A DNA stretch of 64,000 bases from a virus: positions 1 through 64,000 of the IMG/VR virus record IMGVR_UViG_3300049046_000039; one strand, 5' to 3'. The notes under the pieces were generated by a model. It made no database searches and was not told the DNA's origin. It was given only the letters and a program-made list of their open reading frames with translations. The position numbers and the translations under genes were made by a program. Of the stretch, positions 3,140-60,548 are shown in pieces (positions within the stretch are counted from its first letter, which is position 1; the number at the start of each line of letters is the position of its first letter).

Positions 3140-3516
3140 GCTGGTTCCTTCATTCTGACCTTAGACTCGATGTAGTCGGCGATCTCTTCGAAGCTCTTTC
3201 CAGCGTCGTTGAGCTCGATCAGCTTCCACGGGTCGTTCTCGCTCGAGAAGTGCTGATTTACGAAATTGTACGGAAGCGTAGCCGTGGAGCGAGAAGTAAC
3301 GCCTCTGAACACGTAGCCGTGAATGGCCACACCCTCGTCCATGTGCATCTTGATGTGTGGAATTTCTGCGACCTCGCACAGAACACCGAGACAGCAGTGA
3401 TACGTCCTGCCGTTCTCGACCTTCCTCAGCTTTCCCTGTCCCTGTTCGTACTCACCCGATCGAAGAGCCTCGACCCACTTCCTCTTGAGTGCTGACCCAC
3501 GAAACTTTTTCGGCAT
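3136..3516 (-). CDS. Hypothetical protein (WVEALRSG family), paralog 2
   Basis: Same motifs as 2771..3139. Confidence 0.8.
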   Translation of the reverse strand: MPKKFRGSALKRKWVEALRSGEYEQGQGKLRKVENGRTYHCCLGVLCEVAEIPHIKMHMDEGVAIHGYVFRGVTSRSTATLPYNFVNQHFSSENDPWKLIELNDAGKSFEEIADYIESKVRMKEPA

Positions 3517-39246: not shown

Positions 39247-39528
39247 TTACGTAGTGTATCCCTGATTAGCTAACTCGTAGCCATACATCATCATGCGGCA
39301 CTGAAGAGCGAAGTCTCGAACCTTACGATTAGTATCTAGCTTGTAAGCAGTTATAACTTCGTTAGACTGTAGCTCGTCAGTGGCTAGGCTGGCACAGACG
39401 AGAGCTCGCTGTGCTAACTCAGTGTCGGTAATATCCTGATCGTCATTAGGAACGATCAGTTGTTGCTGAGCATACAGCGCGGCCGGAACGCACACTAAGG
39501 CTGCAGCAGCTAAAAGCAGCTTCTTCAT
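39247..39528 (-). CDS. Secreted hypothetical protein
   Basis: Signal peptide MKKLLLAAAALV. Confidence 0.65.
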   Translation of the reverse strand: MKKLLLAAAALVCVPAALYAQQQLIVPNDDQDITDTELAQRALVCASLATDELQSNEVITAYKLDTNRKVRDFALQCRMMMYGYELANQGYTT

Positions 39529-39546
39529 ACAAATTTTCCTTGAAAA

Positions 39547-39874
39547 GTGGTGGGATTCTGTTGCTAGGTTCCCACCGGACCCCAGGACTCACTGCTTAGG
39601 CAGCGAGCGCAAGGACATTGTTGTCGTTTGCGGTTATTTTGTGTGGGCCTTAGCGTGGACCCAAACGATCTTCTCAGTCTAGCCTTCAGCGACCATCGAT
39701 CCTAGTTCGGCCCCATCAGAAGCAGTGGTTGGAAGTCTCTTCATACCAACTTTCATTAAGATCGTCTATAGCCAACCTTAAGACCGTCACTGCTTCTGGT
39801 GGAGCCGCCGGGTACTGCCCCCGGGTCTGATCTCCTATCGTTCAACTTCTGGCATATCTCTATGCCGCGAAGAT
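39547..39874 (-). ncRNA. ssrA: Two-piece (circularly permuted) tmRNA, alphaproteobacterial type; ends approximate
   Basis: T-arm and CGGCTCC-A-CCA (39797) precede the 5' GGGGCCG (39714); G3:U70 pair; tag ORF ANDNNVLALAA* at 39596-39631; promoter TTGACA-N17-TATAAATA. Confidence 0.92.
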
Positions 39875-39905
39875 AGAGTATTTATAACATAGCTTGACTA
39901 AAATG

Positions 39906-50553: not shown

Positions 50554-51180
50554 TTAATCACACTTGATAGTTCTCTCGATCTTCTGCAGTCGCATGATGT
50601 CAGCTGCCAAGTCGTGAATGCAGTTATGCTCTTCGAAGTGCTGAGCCCAGAGAGCCTCGTCGTCAATAGGACAGAATCCGTTCTTTACGTTAGGATTGAA
50701 GTCGAACTGCGTGTCGATGTAGGTTCTAGTATCGCGAACTAGCCAGAACTTCATAACCTCGTCCATCTTATCGCGGCCGATGCTCTCGTTAAAGAGGCGA
50801 GCCATGATGACAGGATCGAAGGTGTTAGCTCTCGACCACCACCGAAAGAGCTTTGGCTGACTCTTAAGATAGTTGTAGATGATGGTGCAGAACTCTTCTA
50901 CACTAACGTCTTCGGGAGACGGCTTAAGCTGGTTCTGAACCTTAGGTGGAAGTGACATCCACCAGTCGATATCGCGCTTGTTATACTTACATCCAGCAGC
51001 CAGCTGAGACTTGATGTCGAGCTTGGCGAACTGAATATTGCTTACTAGCTCGTTAAACGTATAGGGCTTGTCGGACGTAAATCGGTCCCAGTCGAAGACG
51101 TAGTACGCGCAGTTGACTACTGGAATCTTGAATACATCCTGTCCAATAGTCTCAAAGTCAAAGATAAAGTGATTATTCAT
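50554..51180 (-). CDS. DEDD 3'-5' exonuclease (DexA-like)
   Basis: FDFETIG; W.R...FD; RDTRT; H.C.HD...D. Confidence 0.8.
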   Translation of the reverse strand: MNNHFIFDFETIGQDVFKIPVVNCAYYVFDWDRFTSDKPYTFNELVSNIQFAKLDIKSQLAAGCKYNKRDIDWWMSLPPKVQNQLKPSPEDVSVEEFCTIIYNYLKSQPKLFRWWSRANTFDPVIMARLFNESIGRDKMDEVMKFWLVRDTRTYIDTQFDFNPNVKNGFCPIDDEALWAQHFEEHNCIHDLAADIMRLQKIERTIKCD

Positions 51181-53523: not shown

Positions 53524-54129
53524 TCAGAGATTGTGAGTATACTGACCGAAGTTCGGATGGCCGTATTGCTCTCGACGAGCCTTGATCTTGGCGCGAAGCT
53601 CGCTGAGCTCGATAGGACGATAGTCGATCTGCTCGACAGAGACGTTCATGTACAGAGGATCTGGCCAGTATGTGTACTCATTGTCGAATGAGTTAAAGTC
53701 TCGCTTCATTACTTCATTAGCGTGAAGGTGACCGTGAACGTTAACGTTCCAGCGCTGAGTTACCGACTCGGGGTGAAGTGGGACGTGCGAGAGGACCATG
53801 TCTTCCAGAACACGAACGCCATAGACTTCCTTGAAGTACTTCAAGTAGTCTTTGATCTTTCCATTGTCGTGGTTGCCACGAATCAGACGCTTAGAACCGT
53901 TAAGTCTCTCGAGAGTCGAGAGAAACTTAAGATTGATCACTACGTCTCCGAGGTGGTAGACCTTATCCTGCTCTCGTACCACCTCGTTCCAGCGACGCAC
54001 CATCTCTTCGTCCATCTCCTGAGCATTAGCGAAGGGACGAAGTGGCGAACCATCTTTGCGCTTGAACGTCGTGCAACACTTTTCGTGGCCGAAGTGAGTG
54101 TCAGAAATAAAGAAGATGTTCGCCGACAT
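53524..54129 (-). CDS. Calcineurin-like metallophosphoesterase
   Basis: SDTHFGH, LGD, GNHD, SH.P, HGHLH. Confidence 0.92.
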   Translation of the reverse strand: MSANIFFISDTHFGHEKCCTTFKRKDGSPLRPFANAQEMDEEMVRRWNEVVREQDKVYHLGDVVINLKFLSTLERLNGSKRLIRGNHDNGKIKDYLKYFKEVYGVRVLEDMVLSHVPLHPESVTQRWNVNVHGHLHANEVMKRDFNSFDNEYTYWPDPLYMNVSVEQIDYRPIELSELRAKIKARREQYGHPNFGQYTHNL

Positions 54130-54233: not shown

Positions 54234-55391
54234 TCAAACAATAATGTGAGGAACGAATTTTGCAGTATTGCTAGTAATGAGGCCGTCCTCACGAATGCCC
54301 ATACCTACTGCAGCACCGTCGACCGACCAGACGCCGAGTACGGGATACTTACCACTGAACTCAGGAAGAGAGTAGCGCTCTTGATAGACGTAGCCGTCAG
54401 AACCGTACTCGCCACCGGTCGCGCTAAGAGTCTTACCGAACTGGTCCTTGACAAGGATGTTCGAACCTTCGCGAGCCAGAATAGGCTTCGAGACGTATCC
54501 GCTGGAGAAGTCACGATTGTTGACCGGAACTTCGAAGCTTGCGGCAAGGAGGTTCTTATGATTTGGGAACATCTTCCACAGAATCGGAAGAATCGCCTTG
54601 TTAGACCAGATCATCTTCCAGACAGGTTCGATCCACGTGGTGATGTCGGCTGAAGCGAGAATGTTGTTAGCGAACTTCTCGTTGACCATCCACTCCCAAG
54701 GATAGAGATGCTGAATCGTCGACATATGGTAATTGTCGAGATCAACGAAAGCTTCGCCATCCCAACCGATGTCGTTGATCAGAATACCGTGACTGATGAT
54801 GCCGGCTTCTTCTGCCATATCTCGCATGTAGGAGACATTGACGGCATCTTCACCGGCACCATCGTCGGCGTGAGTAAACCAGACGTGCTTCTCAGGAAGC
54901 AGAGGAGCGATGTACTTCCAGCGCTCGACGATAGCTTCGTGAATGCCATTGAACTGATCCACGCCCTCGCCGAACATGTCGTTCTTCCAGTGCCATTGGA
55001 CTACCGAAGCTTCGAGAAGACTGGTCGGAGTGTCGCAGTTGAACTCGAACATCTTGGGGTCGGTGCGACCGTCATAACCAAAGTCGAAGCGACCGTAGTT
55101 AAGAGCCGGTGGCTCGCTATCCCAAGTGTCGATAATGTACTGGTGGAAGTGAGGAGGAATCCCAAACTGGTTGAGGATGTGGTAGTTAGAGACGATATAG
55201 TCTCCAGCTACAATCATCATCTTGTAGCAGTTGTTAGCCGCTTCCTCAATTCTCTCGATGTCTGAAGACGAGAATGCGTAGTATGCGTCCTCGTTCCAGT
55301 AAGGTTCGGCCGAAGCACTGTGCCAGAGAAGACCCTGACCCTCGACGATCGCCTTCCAATTGTGGCGAGGAGTTGAAGAGTGACGCAGCAT
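54234..55391 (-). CDS. Glutathionylspermidine-synthase-family ATP-grasp protein (YgiC-like)
   Basis: YW.E..YY; GRFDF; FEFNCDTPTSLLEAS; LYPWEW; EP.WK...SNKA; KP...REG.N; GIRED. Confidence 0.9.
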   Translation of the reverse strand: MLRHSSTPRHNWKAIVEGQGLLWHSASAEPYWNEDAYYAFSSSDIERIEEAANNCYKMMIVAGDYIVSNYHILNQFGIPPHFHQYIIDTWDSEPPALNYGRFDFGYDGRTDPKMFEFNCDTPTSLLEASVVQWHWKNDMFGEGVDQFNGIHEAIVERWKYIAPLLPEKHVWFTHADDGAGEDAVNVSYMRDMAEEAGIISHGILINDIGWDGEAFVDLDNYHMSTIQHLYPWEWMVNEKFANNILASADITTWIEPVWKMIWSNKAILPILWKMFPNHKNLLAASFEVPVNNRDFSSGYVSKPILAREGSNILVKDQFGKTLSATGGEYGSDGYVYQERYSLPEFSGKYPVLGVWSVDGAAVGMGIREDGLITSNTAKFVPHIIV

Positions 55392-55823: not shown

Positions 55824-56507
55824 TTAGTACTGGTCGAACTTAAGCAAATTATATCCTCTTAGCAAGCCGCGCTTATGTTCTTCCAGAGGATATACTCCAA
55901 TCGAAGTCTTTTGATTTCCGATGTCCGGTTCTCTAAACACTACGTATGGAACTTTCATGCTCCCCAGAACTTTCTCTACTTCTTCGAGCTCGTACGCGTT
56001 ACGTACTCCGCAGCAAGTAAAGTGTAAGCCCTTAACGAGTTCTGGAGACTTTTGAGCGATGAGTGCGCCAAGTTCGAGAGCAGCGTGAGACGTCTGAACC
56101 AGCTGATACTCGTCGAAGATGTCTTGACGAGTGAAGAAGTAGGAGTACCTCCTGATCAGGAGCGCTCTATTTACGCTTAATCTAAGCGCGTGAAGCTCGG
56201 CGTGCTCTTCTTCGGTCAGAACTTCAGCAGCGTTTTGACCTAGAACAAAGTTCTTCAGACCAATGAGCATGCCGTTGTAGTTGTTGGTGATTGCGTCGAA
56301 TGGAACTCTACCGTTCGCCAGCTTGGACACCTTACTGACCGGAGGAAATGCTCGACGGAGAAGGTGAATGGCGATGTCTCTCTTATCGTCGAGAGATTCT
56401 GCACGGGAGTTGATAGCCTTTAGAAGACAGTAGTCGATCATGTCTCGCGTAGTGTTCTTCTTTTGAGAGGCGAGAGTCTTCCAGGCGGTTTTGTAATCAA
56501 AGTTCAT
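55824..56507 (-). CDS. Protein with a C-terminal peptidyl-tRNA hydrolase type 2 (PTH2)-like domain
   Basis: Y.F.RQDI....Q.VQ..HA; F.EPDIG...T.I...P; AAGGA RBS before ATG 56507. Confidence 0.7.
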   Translation of the reverse strand: MNFDYKTAWKTLASQKKNTTRDMIDYCLLKAINSRAESLDDKRDIAIHLLRRAFPPVSKVSKLANGRVPFDAITNNYNGMLIGLKNFVLGQNAAEVLTEEEHAELHALRLSVNRALLIRRYSYFFTRQDIFDEYQLVQTSHAALELGALIAQKSPELVKGLHFTCCGVRNAYELEEVEKVLGSMKVPYVVFREPDIGNQKTSIGVYPLEEHKRGLLRGYNLLKFDQY

Positions 56508-56578
56508 TATTGAATTCCTTAATCTTGAGTAATATAACACGTAATAAAACAAATGTAAATAACATTTTTACGGTAAGA

Positions 56579-56608
56579 TTAAGGCGGGCCGGTTGAGTTC
56601 TAACGCAT
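56579..56608 (-). CDS. Leader mini-ORF M-R-(TAG)-N-S-T-G-P-P-stop
   Basis: AGGAG RBS and TAATG coupling; ATG CGT TAG AAC TCA ACC GGC CCG CCT TAA. Confidence 0.65.
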
Positions 56609-56859
56609 TACTCTTCTCCTGATATTGTTGCGACACCGTCAACAATTTCTACCGAGCACTTCTTGAGCTTGATAGAGCCTTTGGTGTGTGAGTTGTCTGG
56701 AGTTTCTTTTGTAGAGAAGCCGATGTTACAGTCGACATGGTCTACGTAAAACGTCTGCCCTTTTAGTTTAAGAACCCACATGGGAATCTTAGGATCGGCT
56801 AGGTGACCCTTATTGAAGTGAAATACTACTTCTTTACAGTTCTAAAAAGTCTGCTTCAT
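56608..56859 (-). CDS. Conserved-looking phage protein with an in-frame amber at codon 6 (83 aa on readthrough)
   Basis: AAGGA RBS; MKQTF*NCKEVVFHFNKGHLADPKIPMWVLK...STKETPDNSHTKGSIK...; missed by the ORF track. Confidence 0.75.
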
Positions 56860-56863
56860 TTTG

Positions 56864-57328
56864 TTATTCCTTAAATTCGCTAGTAACATTTACCAACTCT
56901 GTTGGCAGATAGAATACTTCAAAATCTTCAACTACTCTCCAGTATTCGCCGTCAGCCCACGATCCTACTAGTTCTGTTACAGCATCGCGAAGAATGTCTT
57001 CTACGTACTTAGAGTCTTCCTCAGAAAGAATGTGATAGTCGAATTCTTTTGGAACTGACACGTTATTCTGGTTATATGAGTCTACAATCTTCTTAAGATC
57101 TGGAACAAGCTCCGAGTCATTTTCACGACCCTCGTAGTCGCTATGTCTATCGACATTTCCATACTTACCACCATCGTAAGTCGACCTAAACATAAGAGCG
57201 ACGTCGACGTAGAACTTAACATGGTCTACTTCCAGACCAGTGAATTCTTTAGTCATGTAGTTGTCGGCGTCATTTTCCCAAGTGGTCAGCTTAAGAATGT
57301 ATCCAGGCTTAATGTTTGTCATAATCAC
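56864..57328 (-). CDS. Hypothetical protein
   Basis: I.PGY.L..TTWENDADNY.T motif. Confidence 0.75.
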   Translation of the reverse strand: MIMTNIKPGYILKLTTWENDADNYMTKEFTGLEVDHVKFYVDVALMFRSTYDGGKYGNVDRHSDYEGRENDSELVPDLKKIVDSYNQNNVSVPKEFDYHILSEEDSKYVEDILRDAVTELVGSWADGEYWRVVEDFEVFYLPTELVNVTSEFKE

Positions 57329-57336
57329 CTTAGTAA

Positions 57337-57413
57337 TGGTGCGCGTGACGGGACTCGAACCCGTGACGTCATGATTTTAGAGATCACCGCTCTTCCAACT
57401 GAGCTACACGCAC
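57337..57413 (-). tRNA. Amber suppressor tRNA (anticodon CUA)
   Basis: GTGCGTG-TA-GCTC..GAGC-G-GTGAT-CT[CTA]AA-ATCAT-GACGTC-ACGGG-TTCGAGT-CCCGT-CACGCGC-A-CCA. Confidence 0.9.
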
Positions 57414-57652
57414 ATATTGTTTCTTATGTATGATGCTACCGAACTTGGCGTCATCACGTTTACAGAACATTCATCGTCTGGATATCGGAACTCCGAAGTT
57501 TCGAGTTCTACCGCGTCCACTAACTTCTTAGTGCCAGTCTCTGAGTTTACTATCTCGACGTAAGAGCTACCACGATAGTAGTAATAGTCAGTGCCGTCGA
57601 CGTTAATCGTTCTAGCACCCTTGCGCTTATTTGTCTTGCTCGGTTTACTCAT
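57404..57652 (-). CDS. Hypothetical protein
   Basis: GAGG RBS before MSKPSK; its TAG stop lies inside the suppressor tRNA 5' end. Confidence 0.6.
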   Translation of the reverse strand: MSKPSKTNKRKGARTINVDGTDYYYYRGSSYVEIVNSETGTKKLVDAVELETSEFRYPDDECSVNVMTPSSVASYIRNNMCV

Positions 57653-57669
57653 GACTGCCTCTTTAATAG

Positions 57670-57761
57670 CGGGTTGCCGTGTTTTCCACCATTGGAAAAC
57701 GCCTGTTTTGGCGGCGTTTATTGGAATCGAACCAATTAGTACGGTTTGCTGTAAGCAACCC
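57670..57761 (-). ncRNA. CAGCAA-stem RNA with a permuted T/acceptor/D tRNA-like module
   Basis: GGGTTGC-TTACAGCAAAC...GCAACCC-G; T arm ATTGG-TTCGATT-CCAAT; AAACGCC-GCCA-AAACA-GGCGTTT. Confidence 0.8.
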
Positions 57762-57770
57762 ATTTTTTTA

Positions 57771-57887: not shown

Positions 57888-57984
57888 CAGGCTTCAGATT
57901 TAGGTGGGAATCGAACCCACACAGATCGATTAGAAGTCGATTGCTCTACCTTTGAGCTACTGAAAGGTTTGCTGTAAGAAGCCT
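57888..57984 (-). ncRNA. CAGCAA-stem RNA containing the D, anticodon (UCU, Arg) and T arms of a tRNA
   Basis: AGGCTTC-TTACAGCAAAC...GAAGCCT-G; promoter TTGACA-N17-TATAAT at 57994-58022. Confidence 0.8.
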
Positions 57985-59096: not shown

Positions 59097-60548
59097 TTAC
59101 CTGAAGTCATACTTAGACTGCATGACAGTCTTACGCATGATACCTTCGGGAGTCATGTCGTCGTAGTTAGCGCCGAGAACGGCCTTCATGATCGCTGGCG
59201 AGAAGCCAGAGACGAGGGCAGTTCCAGTCTCGTCGAATGAAACCGGCACGTTACCGTGAGAGTTGAGGTTCCAGAAGACTACTGCCGGAGCTTCGTAACC
59301 AGCACGACGGTACTCGTTACGGATCATCTCGATTGCTCGAGGGTCGTGAGCTTTCGCGCTAGAGCTCCAGCCGCCGCCACCAGTGCCTACGCACTGGTTG
59401 AACTGCATGTCAGACATGATTAGGAGCATCGTTGGCATTTCTGCCGCAGGCACCTTACCCTTGACTGCAGTATCGAGGATGCGATGGAGCGCCTTCTCGA
59501 GGTCGGTAGACATGTTCCAAGACGATCTCGCCATGGCGTTGTATCGCTGAGACAGCGTACCCTTGACGGTCACGAACTCAGGCTCACTGGAGAAGGTAAG
59601 GAACATGTCCTTGAACTTACCAGTGTTCTTGCTCGCGCAATAGAGACCTAGAGAGATCGCTACGTCGAGACAGGTGACATCCACGCCCTTCGTACCACCG
59701 CCGGCGCGGCAGCCCATAGAACCTGAAACGTCTACCAGAGGCAGAACGTTAGCGTCGCCGATAAAGTTAGGTAGAGCGTCCCACTGAGCGTTAGCCACGG
59801 TAGAGTCACCGTATCTCACGGTCTTGATGATGTCGTAAGGGTATACGGCACCAGCGTTGACCTTGACACCCTTGTCGCCACGCTTGAGAGCTTCCTTGTA
59901 TGCAGTGAACTGCGTAGGAGCCTTCTTAGCGAAAGCCTTGGTGTAGCGAGACATAGCCAGAGAAGGAACGTGGTTGAAGTTGATAGCTTCAAACTCACGG
60001 TTACACATCTGAGTCTCGACAACTCTCGTGAGGTTCACGAGCAGCTTGCGGTACTGCTTTGGAGACATTGCCATGAAGTTGCGCAGCTCTACAGCCTTAG
60101 CGCCCTTACGTGGCATCCACTTAGCGGCCAGACCATTACCGTTCTGGAGGTTCTCCTGAATGAGAGAGAACGCTACAGACTTCACTTCCTCGGTGTTGAA
60201 CACGAGAAGGTCGTCGAAGCGGCCCAGATCAGGAACACGCGACAGAAGGTTAGTCTTGGTGAGGTAGTCAGGGTTGACTTTCTCGAGATGGAGAAGGATG
60301 TCGCGGAAGAGCTTACGCTCACCGGCGCCGCCGCGGATGTCGCGAGCCCAGAGGGCGATACGGATAGCCAGTTCGCTGTCTTCTACCAGCGCCTTGTTGA
60401 AGAGGCCGGTAACGTCCTTGCCACGCATAGCGCCGATCTGACCAAAGAGGTCTACGTTGGCGCGCATGGTTGACTTGTATGCAGCCATGCCATTCGTGGT
60501 CTTGGTTTTTACAGGAGTGTTGTTTACTGCATTCGCAAAAGTATTCAT
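59097..60548 (-). CDS. DUF2828-family helical plus vWA protein (Ro60/TROVE-like architecture)
   Basis: T.NG; ARDIRGG.GER; AAKW.PR; VETQMC; VPS.AM.RY..AF; QW..L; MIDAS DVSGS; SDMQF; VFWNL; SGFSP. Confidence 0.88.
   Translation of the reverse strand: MNTFANAVNNTPVKTKTTNGMAAYKSTMRANVDLFGQIGAMRGKDVTGLFNKALVEDSELAIRIALWARDIRGGAGERKLFRDILLHLEKVNPDYLTKTNLLSRVPDLGRFDDLLVFNTEEVKSVAFSLIQENLQNGNGLAAKWMPRKGAKAVELRNFMAMSPKQYRKLLVNLTRVVETQMCNREFEAINFNHVPSLAMSRYTKAFAKKAPTQFTAYKEALKRGDKGVKVNAGAVYPYDIIKTVRYGDSTVANAQWDALPNFIGDANVLPLVDVSGSMGCRAGGGTKGVDVTCLDVAISLGLYCASKNTGKFKDMFLTFSSEPEFVTVKGTLSQRYNAMARSSWNMSTDLEKALHRILDTAVKGKVPAAEMPTMLLIMSDMQFNQCVGTGGGGWSSSAKAHDPRAIEMIRNEYRRAGYEAPAVVFWNLNSHGNVPVSFDETGTALVSGFSPAIMKAVLGANYDDMTPEGIMRKTVMQSKYDFR

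Follow-up and report, generated by a model that had tools for sequence, protein, structure and literature searches.

A candidate phage cassette in which a suppressor tRNA with anticodon CUA would open an amber-gated gene and an amber-gated leader

Suppressor tRNAs are known from recoded phages, where they form part of code-change modules that read TAG as glutamine (code 15) or TGA as tryptophan (code 4) (bioRxiv 10.1101/2021.08.26.457843; PMC9523058). In the crAss-like, Lak and Jade phages of this kind, a phage suppressor tRNA conditions the expression of genes with in-frame stops, with timing as the proposed purpose; such stops are numerous in tens of late or lysis genes, and the codon is largely given up as a terminator. 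tRNAs with anticodon CUA or UCA also occur in large standard-code phages that carry peptidyl-tRNA hydrolase genes, such as Xanthomonas phage XacN1 (PMC5852040) and Atu_ph07 (PMC6102473). The authors of the XacN1 study read through amber stops at gene ends, and the targets of its two CUA tRNAs were not identifiable (PMC5852040). Here we describe a stretch of 64,000 nucleotides (positions 1 to 64,000 of IMG/VR virus record IMGVR_UViG_3300049046_000039, hereafter the window), in which a tRNA(CUA) gene lies upstream, on the same strand, of a gene of what we call the FHFNK family and of a short leader open reading frame (ORF). We propose that the three belong to a conserved phage cassette in which the suppressor tRNA would be the key to two amber locks, and we put the probability of this reading at roughly three in four. 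The locus differs from recoded phages in that one gene and one leader are concerned, each with a single TAG in its first eight codons and situated beside the tRNA, and from XacN1 in that the candidate targets lie at gene starts, where annotation drops them.

In terms of function, two further groups of known systems come closest. In prfB, the gene of release factor RF2, an early in-frame stop senses termination efficiency and sets the output of a translation-factor gene; there, UGA is passed by a +1 frameshift and the release factor is sensed, whereas here UAG would be decoded in frame by a tRNA and the products are no release factors. The leaders of ermC, cat, secM-secA and tnaC are short ORFs on which a paused ribosome opens a hairpin that hides a Shine-Dalgarno (SD) sequence, and the leader described below, which is known from sequence, resembles them in build. 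The known leaders are triggered by an antibiotic, by secretion load or by tryptophan, whereas the proposed trigger here is UAG readthrough at leader codon 3-4. To our knowledge no leader triggered by UAG readthrough has been described, and full-text literature searches returned no description of an N-terminal gate made of a single TAG or of a readthrough-triggered leader.

The phage record that begins with the window has 115,801 bases (completeness estimate 64%) and carries 34 tRNA genes and one transfer-messenger RNA (tmRNA); the closest cultured relatives of the region are phages of Rhizobium, Sinorhizobium and Agrobacterium. The genes surrounding the locus are coded on the minus strand (Table 1). 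The FHFNK gene starts AAGGA-N9-ATG AAG CAG ACT TTT TAG AAC TGT and is then open to a TAA for 77 sense codons, just as an earlier note on this DNA, made from its letters alone, had described it: an ORF with a ribosome-binding site and an early in-frame TAG. The TAG at codon 6 and the next ATG (M27) enclose the invariant FHFNK motif, and no alternative start (ATG, GTG or TTG) occurs between the TAG and M27. A product begun at M27 would therefore lack the invariant block. In the nine codons after the TAG, codon differences among 58 distinct relatives are synonymous in 33% of cases in frame, compared with 10% and 7% when the frame is shifted. An AlphaFold2 (AF2) model built from 74 sequences gave a small all-beta domain with a predicted local distance difference test score (pLDDT) of 92.6, and residues 3-15 form a strand of that domain. 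The protein matches nothing in Pfam or PHROGs, its model has no Foldseek match in the PDB below E 0.3, and a wide VIA-align search reached a best Z of 3.5, a weak small-beta or OB-like resemblance. Some relatives are long forms, whose C-terminal extension has no Pfam match and no similarity to the PTH2-like protein discussed below. Between the tRNA and the FHFNK gene sits a gene of 152 amino acids that is not gated by a TAG.

Table 1. Features of the amber-gated locus in the 64,000-nt window, and leader peptides of the window and its relatives (in peptides the asterisk stands for the in-frame TAG; AF2, AlphaFold2; MFE, minimum free energy)
Feature	Positions	Strand	Basis	Peptide
tRNA, anticodon CUA, class I	57337..57413	-	ARAGORN; Rfam RF00005; 40 distinct CUA tRNAs at homologous position in relatives	
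152-amino-acid gene, phrog_2290, not TAG-gated	56864..57322	-	PHROGs E 6e-22; no Pfam match	
Amber-gated FHFNK-family gene: SD, ATG, 4 codons, TAG, 77 codons	56608..56859	-	124 homologs; AF2	
In-frame TAG, codon 6 of the FHFNK gene, next base A	56842..56844	-	94 distinct relatives	
Amber-gated leader M-R-TAG-N-S-T-G-P-P-TAA	56579..56608	-	ATG overlaps FHFNK stop (TAATG); relatives	MR*NSTGPP
Predicted hairpin, 5' arm: last Pro codon CCT + TAA + TCTT	56575..56584	-	MFE folds	
Sigma-70-like match TTTACA-17-TATATT, TG-extended, in hairpin loop	56531..56559	-	Similar motif in relatives	
Predicted hairpin, 3' arm AAGATTAAGG, with SD (AAGG) of the PTH2-like gene, 9 nt before its ATG	56517..56526	-	MFE, 7/7	
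227-amino-acid protein: helical N-terminal domain and predicted C-terminal PTH2-fold domain	55824..56507	-	Foldseek, AF2	
Leader of relative L155				MLR*NSTGPP
Leader of relative L202				MT*LSTGPP
Leader of relative L152				MN*QLAQPP
Leader of relative L153				MR*FKPP
Leader of relative L154				MR*LKPP
Leader of relative L171				MM*VFKPP

The TAG recurs throughout the family. The read-through FHFNK product had 124 matches in the protein collection, and 433 viral-contig stretches encode a relative, of which the 80 best, together with two GenBank loci, made up a first set of 82 loci (loci of all sets are labelled L with a number below). In 79 of these 80 the gene starts with an ATG behind a strong SD sequence, followed by 1-6 codons and a TAG, with the FHFNK motif 7-11 codons further on. 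The sole exception is Sinorhizobium phage Phosso, where the FHFNK domain is fused behind another domain; in Atu_ph07, which has a tRNA with anticodon UCA, the homolog is likewise fused and ungated. A second set, from a scan seeded with a distant FHFNK member, also showed the in-frame TAG in most loci. Pooling both sets gave 94 distinct genes with a gate, in which the TAG is the third codon 63 times, the fourth and the fifth 12 times each, the sixth 4 times, the seventh twice and the eighth once; a TAA or TGA stood at the gate position in none of the 94, and no TGA- or TAA-gated member was found among about 150 loci. When the general pattern of SD, ATG, 1-5 codons, stop and at least 50 open codons was counted over 138 non-redundant loci, it occurred 106 times with TAG, 6 times with TAA and 11 times with TGA, while the opposite strand held 6-9 occurrences. 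The family appears essentially confined to phages: a search of 185,579 species genomes returned seven matches, all on metagenome-assembled genome (MAG) contigs of unrelated taxa, and these look like phage DNA binned with the MAGs. A cultured representative is Rhizobium phage RHph_I1_18 (L003), in which an unannotated gene reads ATG AGT GAG TTC ATG TAG AAC and runs on to FHFNK.

The surroundings of the TAG tell which of its properties are kept. Both TAGs of the window stand in the context T-TAG-AAC-T, as the earlier note had pointed out, but the relatives retain of this context only a purine, mostly A, after the TAG (A in 84 of the 94 genes, G in 7, C in 3 and T in none). By comparison, the TAGs that end genes in this phage are followed by C (6), T (5), A (4) or G (4), with no bias towards A. 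Work by Bossi and by Miller and Albertini, both of 1983, reportedly found that a purine 3' of UAG, A above all, favours amber suppression in E. coli. Because the N-terminal tail that carries the gate is variable, with the gate anywhere from codon 3 to codon 8 and among unconserved neighbours, the inserted residue is probably immaterial, and what matters is probably whether the stop gets read. Three homing-endonuclease-like genes of the GIY-YIG or HNH-like kind (L011:4470, L055:9299 and L022:8182) also start M-A/S-TAG-I-E-Y, as if they had copied or captured the gated 5' end of an FHFNK gene.

The second line of evidence is the linkage of the gate to tRNA(CUA). ARAGORN called a CUA tRNA at 57 of the 82 first-set loci and at 50 second-set loci, in every case on the same strand as the gated gene and in most loci within 10 kb of it, so that the co-occurrence in relatives for which the earlier note had proposed to look is indeed found. 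The usual distance is 50-2500 nt on either side, the tRNA at times overlaps the last 14 nt of the gene, and in RHph_I1_18 it begins 14 nt past it. At 51 loci about 20 kb of sequence contain no tRNA besides the one with CUA. Altogether, the 1289 tRNAs at these loci include 108 with anticodon CUA, none with UUA and none with UCA. A pattern search recovered atypical CUA tRNAs that ARAGORN had missed, upstream and on the same strand, at no fewer than nine more loci (L006, L015, L017, L021, L023, L025, L052, L076 and L029), and in a 97%-complete genome with no nearby copy a CUA tRNA lies 11.7 kb away. Two tRNA-like genes with 6-nt anticodon loops (L007:4143-4218 and L038:7030-7102), to which ARAGORN gives the two-base anticodons tg and at, are not CUA readers.

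In the window, the tRNA(CUA) is intact, as previously claimed: ARAGORN calls a gene of 77 nt, which scores 59.2 bits against Rfam RF00005 (gathering score 29). It has G1-C72, U2:G71, A73 and an encoded CCA, an ordinary D-loop (AGTTGGAA) with G18G19, the T-loop TTCGAGT, an anticodon stem of 5 bp and a 7-nt anticodon loop C-U-CUA-A-A, with U33 and a purine at position 37. The same anticodon loop features are present in the 40 distinct CUA tRNAs at homologous positions, whose stems are highly divergent, and since the stem differences compensate each other these genes are kept as tRNAs. An attempt to assign an amino-acid identity was dropped, as the CUA tRNAs resemble no single isotype: the best match within this phage genome is tRNA-Arg(UCU) at 79%, and across 27 phages the nearest isotype was Trp (5), Leu (3), Arg (3), Glu (3) or others. 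We infer that the tRNA is expressed and charged and that the TAG is read by it and not by a tRNA of the host. An ORF of 119 amino acids (57404-57763, minus strand) stops at a TAG within the 5' end of this tRNA gene, and readthrough there would add 8 codons.

Immediately downstream of the FHFNK gene lies the second gated frame of the window, TA-ATG CGT TAG (56602-56600) AAC TCA ACC GGC CCG CCT TAA. The earlier note had taken it for a second ORF, coupled through TAATG. The frame and its in-frame TAG are present, but it yields no protein product, being instead a 9-codon leader that ends in Pro-Pro-stop, and on comparative grounds it is a regulatory leader rather than a protein gene. The corresponding stretch of L005, the closest relative with 78% protein identity, reads TA-ATG CTT CGG TAG AAC TCC ACT GGT CCT CCC TGA; N-S-T-G-P-P is identical in the two, while five of the six codons differ synonymously and the stop differs as well. 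Leaders of this kind were found in seven distinct loci with long-form PTH2-like homologs, the window included, 82-106 nt before the start of the homolog (peptides in Table 1). Among SD-bearing mini-ORFs with an early stop, a Pro-Pro ending occurred in 5 of 61 with TAG, in none of 170 with TAA or TGA and in none of 103 on the other strand. After this control and the synonymous changes in L005, the idea of a chance ORF was dropped. Amber-gated leaders ending in Pro-Pro-stop are also present in RHph_I1_18 (3364-3387, ML*FKPP) and in L007 (680-706, MS*LAQPP), where they precede a gene of 117-127 amino acids with a domain ..EY.AW..W.., the very domain that precedes the FHFNK domain in the fusion proteins of Phosso and Atu_ph07.

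A C-terminal proline slows termination, as is known for Pro-Pro-stop ends, from tmRNA tagging and for TnaC. The TnaC case has been described (PMC8450073). In the minimum free energy (MFE) folds of all seven loci, an arm made up of the final Pro codon, the stop and roughly five more bases pairs with a stretch ending in AAGG or TAGG. This stretch, at 8-10 nt from the downstream ATG, constitutes the SD sequence of the PTH2-like gene; in the window, CCTTAATCTT (56584-56575) pairs with AAGATTAAGG (56526-56517). The stop covaries with its partner (TAA with TTA, TGA with TCA). The penultimate Pro codon is outside the helix and is Pro in all seven leaders, which points to a constraint on the peptide. 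The leader has two traits of arrest leaders. It is a short upstream ORF that has an SD of its own and a conserved end, Pro-Pro-stop, prone to arrest, and, as predicted by MFE in 7 of 7, an RNA structure over the arrest site hides the downstream SD sequence. We infer that Pro-Pro-stop pauses the ribosome in the leader; for the predicted hairpin to control translation of the PTH2-like gene, we see an even chance.

The protein encoded behind the hairpin matches Pfam PTH2 (PF01981) below threshold (13.5 bits against 23, E 0.087), and in a profile search of the PDB the sole match was again PTH2 (E 0.12-0.66). Its AF2 model, from 20 sequences, has a pLDDT of 87, and the top 11 Foldseek matches are all archaeal or eukaryotic PTH2 structures (E 3e-5 to 5e-4, TMt 0.69-0.77), aligned over about 110 columns with a root mean square deviation of 2.2-3.0. 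Judged from this model, the product has the PTH2 fold and is a putative peptidyl-tRNA-hydrolase-like protein. It would share the fold of MJ0051, Sso Pth2 and human Bit1/PTRH2 in its C-terminal 110 residues, and differs from them by an extra helical N-terminal domain of 115 residues and by a sequence similarity that stays under the Pfam threshold. About thirty distant short-form PTH2-like relatives from metagenomes carry an in-frame TAG directly, at codons 3-8, and many of these loci have a CUA tRNA on the same strand. The PTH2-like family would thus have two distinct links to UAG readthrough, and this speaks for selection on the coupling itself.

We propose the following mechanism. At the first lock, ribosomes recruited by the strong SD of the FHFNK gene would start at its ATG and meet the UAG after 2-7 codons. 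Where no charged suppressor is at hand, a peptide of a few residues would be released; where it is, readthrough would yield the beta-protein of 83 amino acids. At the second lock, a ribosome that is not aided by suppression would exit at the UAG, and the SD of the PTH2-like gene would stay paired, because the helix begins 9-15 nt past the leader UAG and a ribosome stopped there would leave the hairpin closed. With suppression, the ribosome would go on to halt at Pro-Pro-stop, cover the 5' arm and free the SD, and the PTH2-fold gene would be translated. As a net effect both proteins would be made only during, and in proportion to, UAG readthrough in the infected cell. The programmed, tRNA-dependent readthrough that had been suggested earlier is supported by the conserved TAG before FHFNK, by the linkage to CUA tRNAs and by the arrangement in RHph_I1_18.

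Three explanations would make the TAG something other than a gate. It could have arisen by faulty sequencing or as a nonsense mutation private to this contig, or it could betray a decaying pseudogene, with any real product starting at M27, and gene callers take this side: for the window itself, the protein collection lists a 57-amino-acid piece (P0009) that begins at M27, and the RHph_I1_18 gene was left out altogether. Given that such a product would lose FHFNK, that a coding signature is seen in the codons behind the TAG and that 94 distinct relatives keep the TAG, we attach next to no weight to it; the comparison excludes the error and the private mutation that the earlier note had named as threats to its reading, and the TAG is confirmed on this ground as conserved and as no product of chance either. 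The whole phage might be TAG-recoded with TAG read as glutamine, in the style of crAss-like and Lak phages, so that our two TAGs would be two of many. A phage-encoded CUA tRNA is a hallmark of recoded phages (bioRxiv 10.1101/2021.08.26.457843), and several collection proteins (P0029, P0041, P0046, P0048 and others) read MSQIEYACK... where the viral contigs have ATG TCN TAG ATT, a Q that we suspect to come from gene calling under code 15. Yet TAG ends 19 of the 154 non-overlapping ORFs of at least 80 amino acids on the 115.8-kb contig (12 of 132 at 100 or more) with ordinary intergenic signals behind it, and a long TAG-joined frame at 81903 is two genes parted by a promoter-like site and a ribosome-binding site, which bears out the earlier statement that TAG is a normal stop elsewhere. 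A scan of the whole contig for stop-interrupted gene starts on the minus strand gave 6 matches with TAG, 3 with TAA and 8 with TGA, and revealed no further TAG-interrupted start that is credible; beyond the CUA tRNA and the gated gene, many relatives have no such feature in 20 kb. With in-frame TAG confined to one gene and one leader, the pattern of code 15 is not found: the phage uses the standard code without genome-wide recoding of TAG, and recoding is a very improbable explanation of the gate. Equally little credence goes to the view that UAG stands for a special, functionally needed residue such as pyrrolysine, supplied by a dedicated tRNA and synthetase. ARAGORN does label the tRNA Pyl, a label that derives from the anticodon alone, and the CUA tRNAs match no single isotype of their own genomes. 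The pylT tRNA, however, has a small D-loop without G18G19, a 3-nt variable loop and a 6-bp anticodon stem, and tRNA(CUA) is unlike it in its G18G19 D-loop, TTCGA T-loop and 5-bp anticodon stem; PylS (TIGR02367) has no match in the 115.8-kb record, which is 64% complete and whose host is not identified; and the gate occurs in an unconserved N-terminal tail and also in a 9-codon leader.

A number of observations weigh against the cassette as proposed, and they lend substance to two further alternatives. About a dozen gated loci, mostly contig fragments, have no CUA tRNA in the available DNA, and other members (L090, L100, L103-L110) have a plain ATG start yet a CUA tRNA nearby, so the tRNA is not bound to the FHFNK gene alone. 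A strong suppressor would extend the 19 TAG-terminated ORFs. The hairpin consists of MFE predictions on seven sequences and not of a statistical covariation test, the leaders of L003 and L007 show no clear SD pairing, and a transcript started at the sigma-70-like promoter in the loop would have no 5' arm and escape the leader's control. Long forms at 30-33% identity (L203, L209, L212, L217) have no Pro-Pro-stop leader within 260 nt upstream, and the leader is accordingly a trait of the window's clade and not of all long forms. The incomplete linkage suits the idea that UAG is passed without the phage tRNA, by re-initiation at the next codon or by near-cognate readthrough in the host, with a role in, say, global suppression or counter-defence accounting for the linkage of the tRNA. 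It is further favoured by the codon after the TAG, which is ATT, ATC or ATA in 66 of 94 genes, AUU being a known rare start. In the other 28, the window among them, the next codon is no start (AAT, ACT, AAA, AAC, GTA, GTC, GTT, CAA, CCC or CTC), N-S-T-G-P-P could be reached only by elongating through the TAG, and re-initiation does not predict a gate made of TAG alone next to suppressors of CUA type alone; we regard such tRNA-independent passage as rather unlikely. The hairpin, for its part, might be no switch but an element of RNA processing or stability, or reflect Pro codons (CCN), which are naturally anti-SD-like, with the PTH2-like gene served by its own promoter. The promoter-like site and the unpaired leaders of L003 and L007 speak for this, and a similar GTTTAC..TATA motif recurs in the hairpin loops of L152-L155 and after the TAG at 81903; the promoter match of the window is by itself not above chance (2 found, 3.1 expected). 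On the other side, the helix runs 5-9 bp beyond the Pro codon and through the covarying stop in 7 of 7, the unpaired penultimate codon is always Pro, and shuffling of the 12-nt segment abolished the pairing, with 0-11 of 200 shuffles reaching the observed value. A hairpin that is no switch seems to us unlikely, but by no means negligible.

If the cassette operates as proposed, it supplies candidate targets for the suppressor tRNAs of standard-code phages, which had been lacking (XacN1, PMC5852040). Such targets would have been overlooked because a stop at codons 3-8 makes gene callers truncate or drop the gene, and hundreds of mis-called genes in phage annotation are concerned. Both the single-codon, tRNA-operated gate and the readthrough-triggered leader peptide would be new. 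They would parallel, in nature, the synthetic gene switches built on amber suppression, and would offer compact natural parts for such switches. The peptidyl-tRNA-hydrolase-like product behind the gate and the phage tmRNA would link suppression to ribosome rescue. We tentatively picture a self-contained circuit that senses UAG readthrough, in which the tRNA is read by the amber gate and by the arrest leader and quality-control factors are tied to the level of suppression, though we hold this for slightly less than an even bet. As to its purpose we can only guess at timing, or at feedback control of the unwanted consequences of suppression, for instance readthrough products and a load of peptidyl-tRNA. 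Cultured phages with the module, for example RHph_I1_18, make it testable.

Some other features of the genome deserve mention. The tmRNA (39505-39889, minus strand; tag peptide ANDNNVLALAA; marked with an asterisk by ARAGORN) is of interest beside a suppressor tRNA because readthrough yields non-stop ribosomes. An element at 57896-57966 (minus strand) matches the Rfam tRNA model with 55.2 bits and is not called by ARAGORN. It lies among tRNA-like elements and has D, anticodon (loop CUUCUAA, that is UCU) and T arms without a normal acceptor stem, in place of which the outer flanks AGGCTTC and GAAGCCT pair; its BLAST matches are tRNA-Lys and tRNA-Thr genes of other phages. Two tRNAs of the same genome are long for class I, a tRNA-Ile(UAU) of 91 nt (C1:96722-96812, outside the window) and a tRNA-Asp of 83 nt. 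Also among tRNA-like elements, a 483-amino-acid protein (59097-60548, minus strand) combines DUF2828 with DUF7788 (TROVE/Ro60-like), and near it are encoded a glutathionylspermidine-synthase-like protein (54234-55391), a metallophosphatase (53524-54129) and an Rv2179c-like 3'-5' exoribonuclease (50554-51180).

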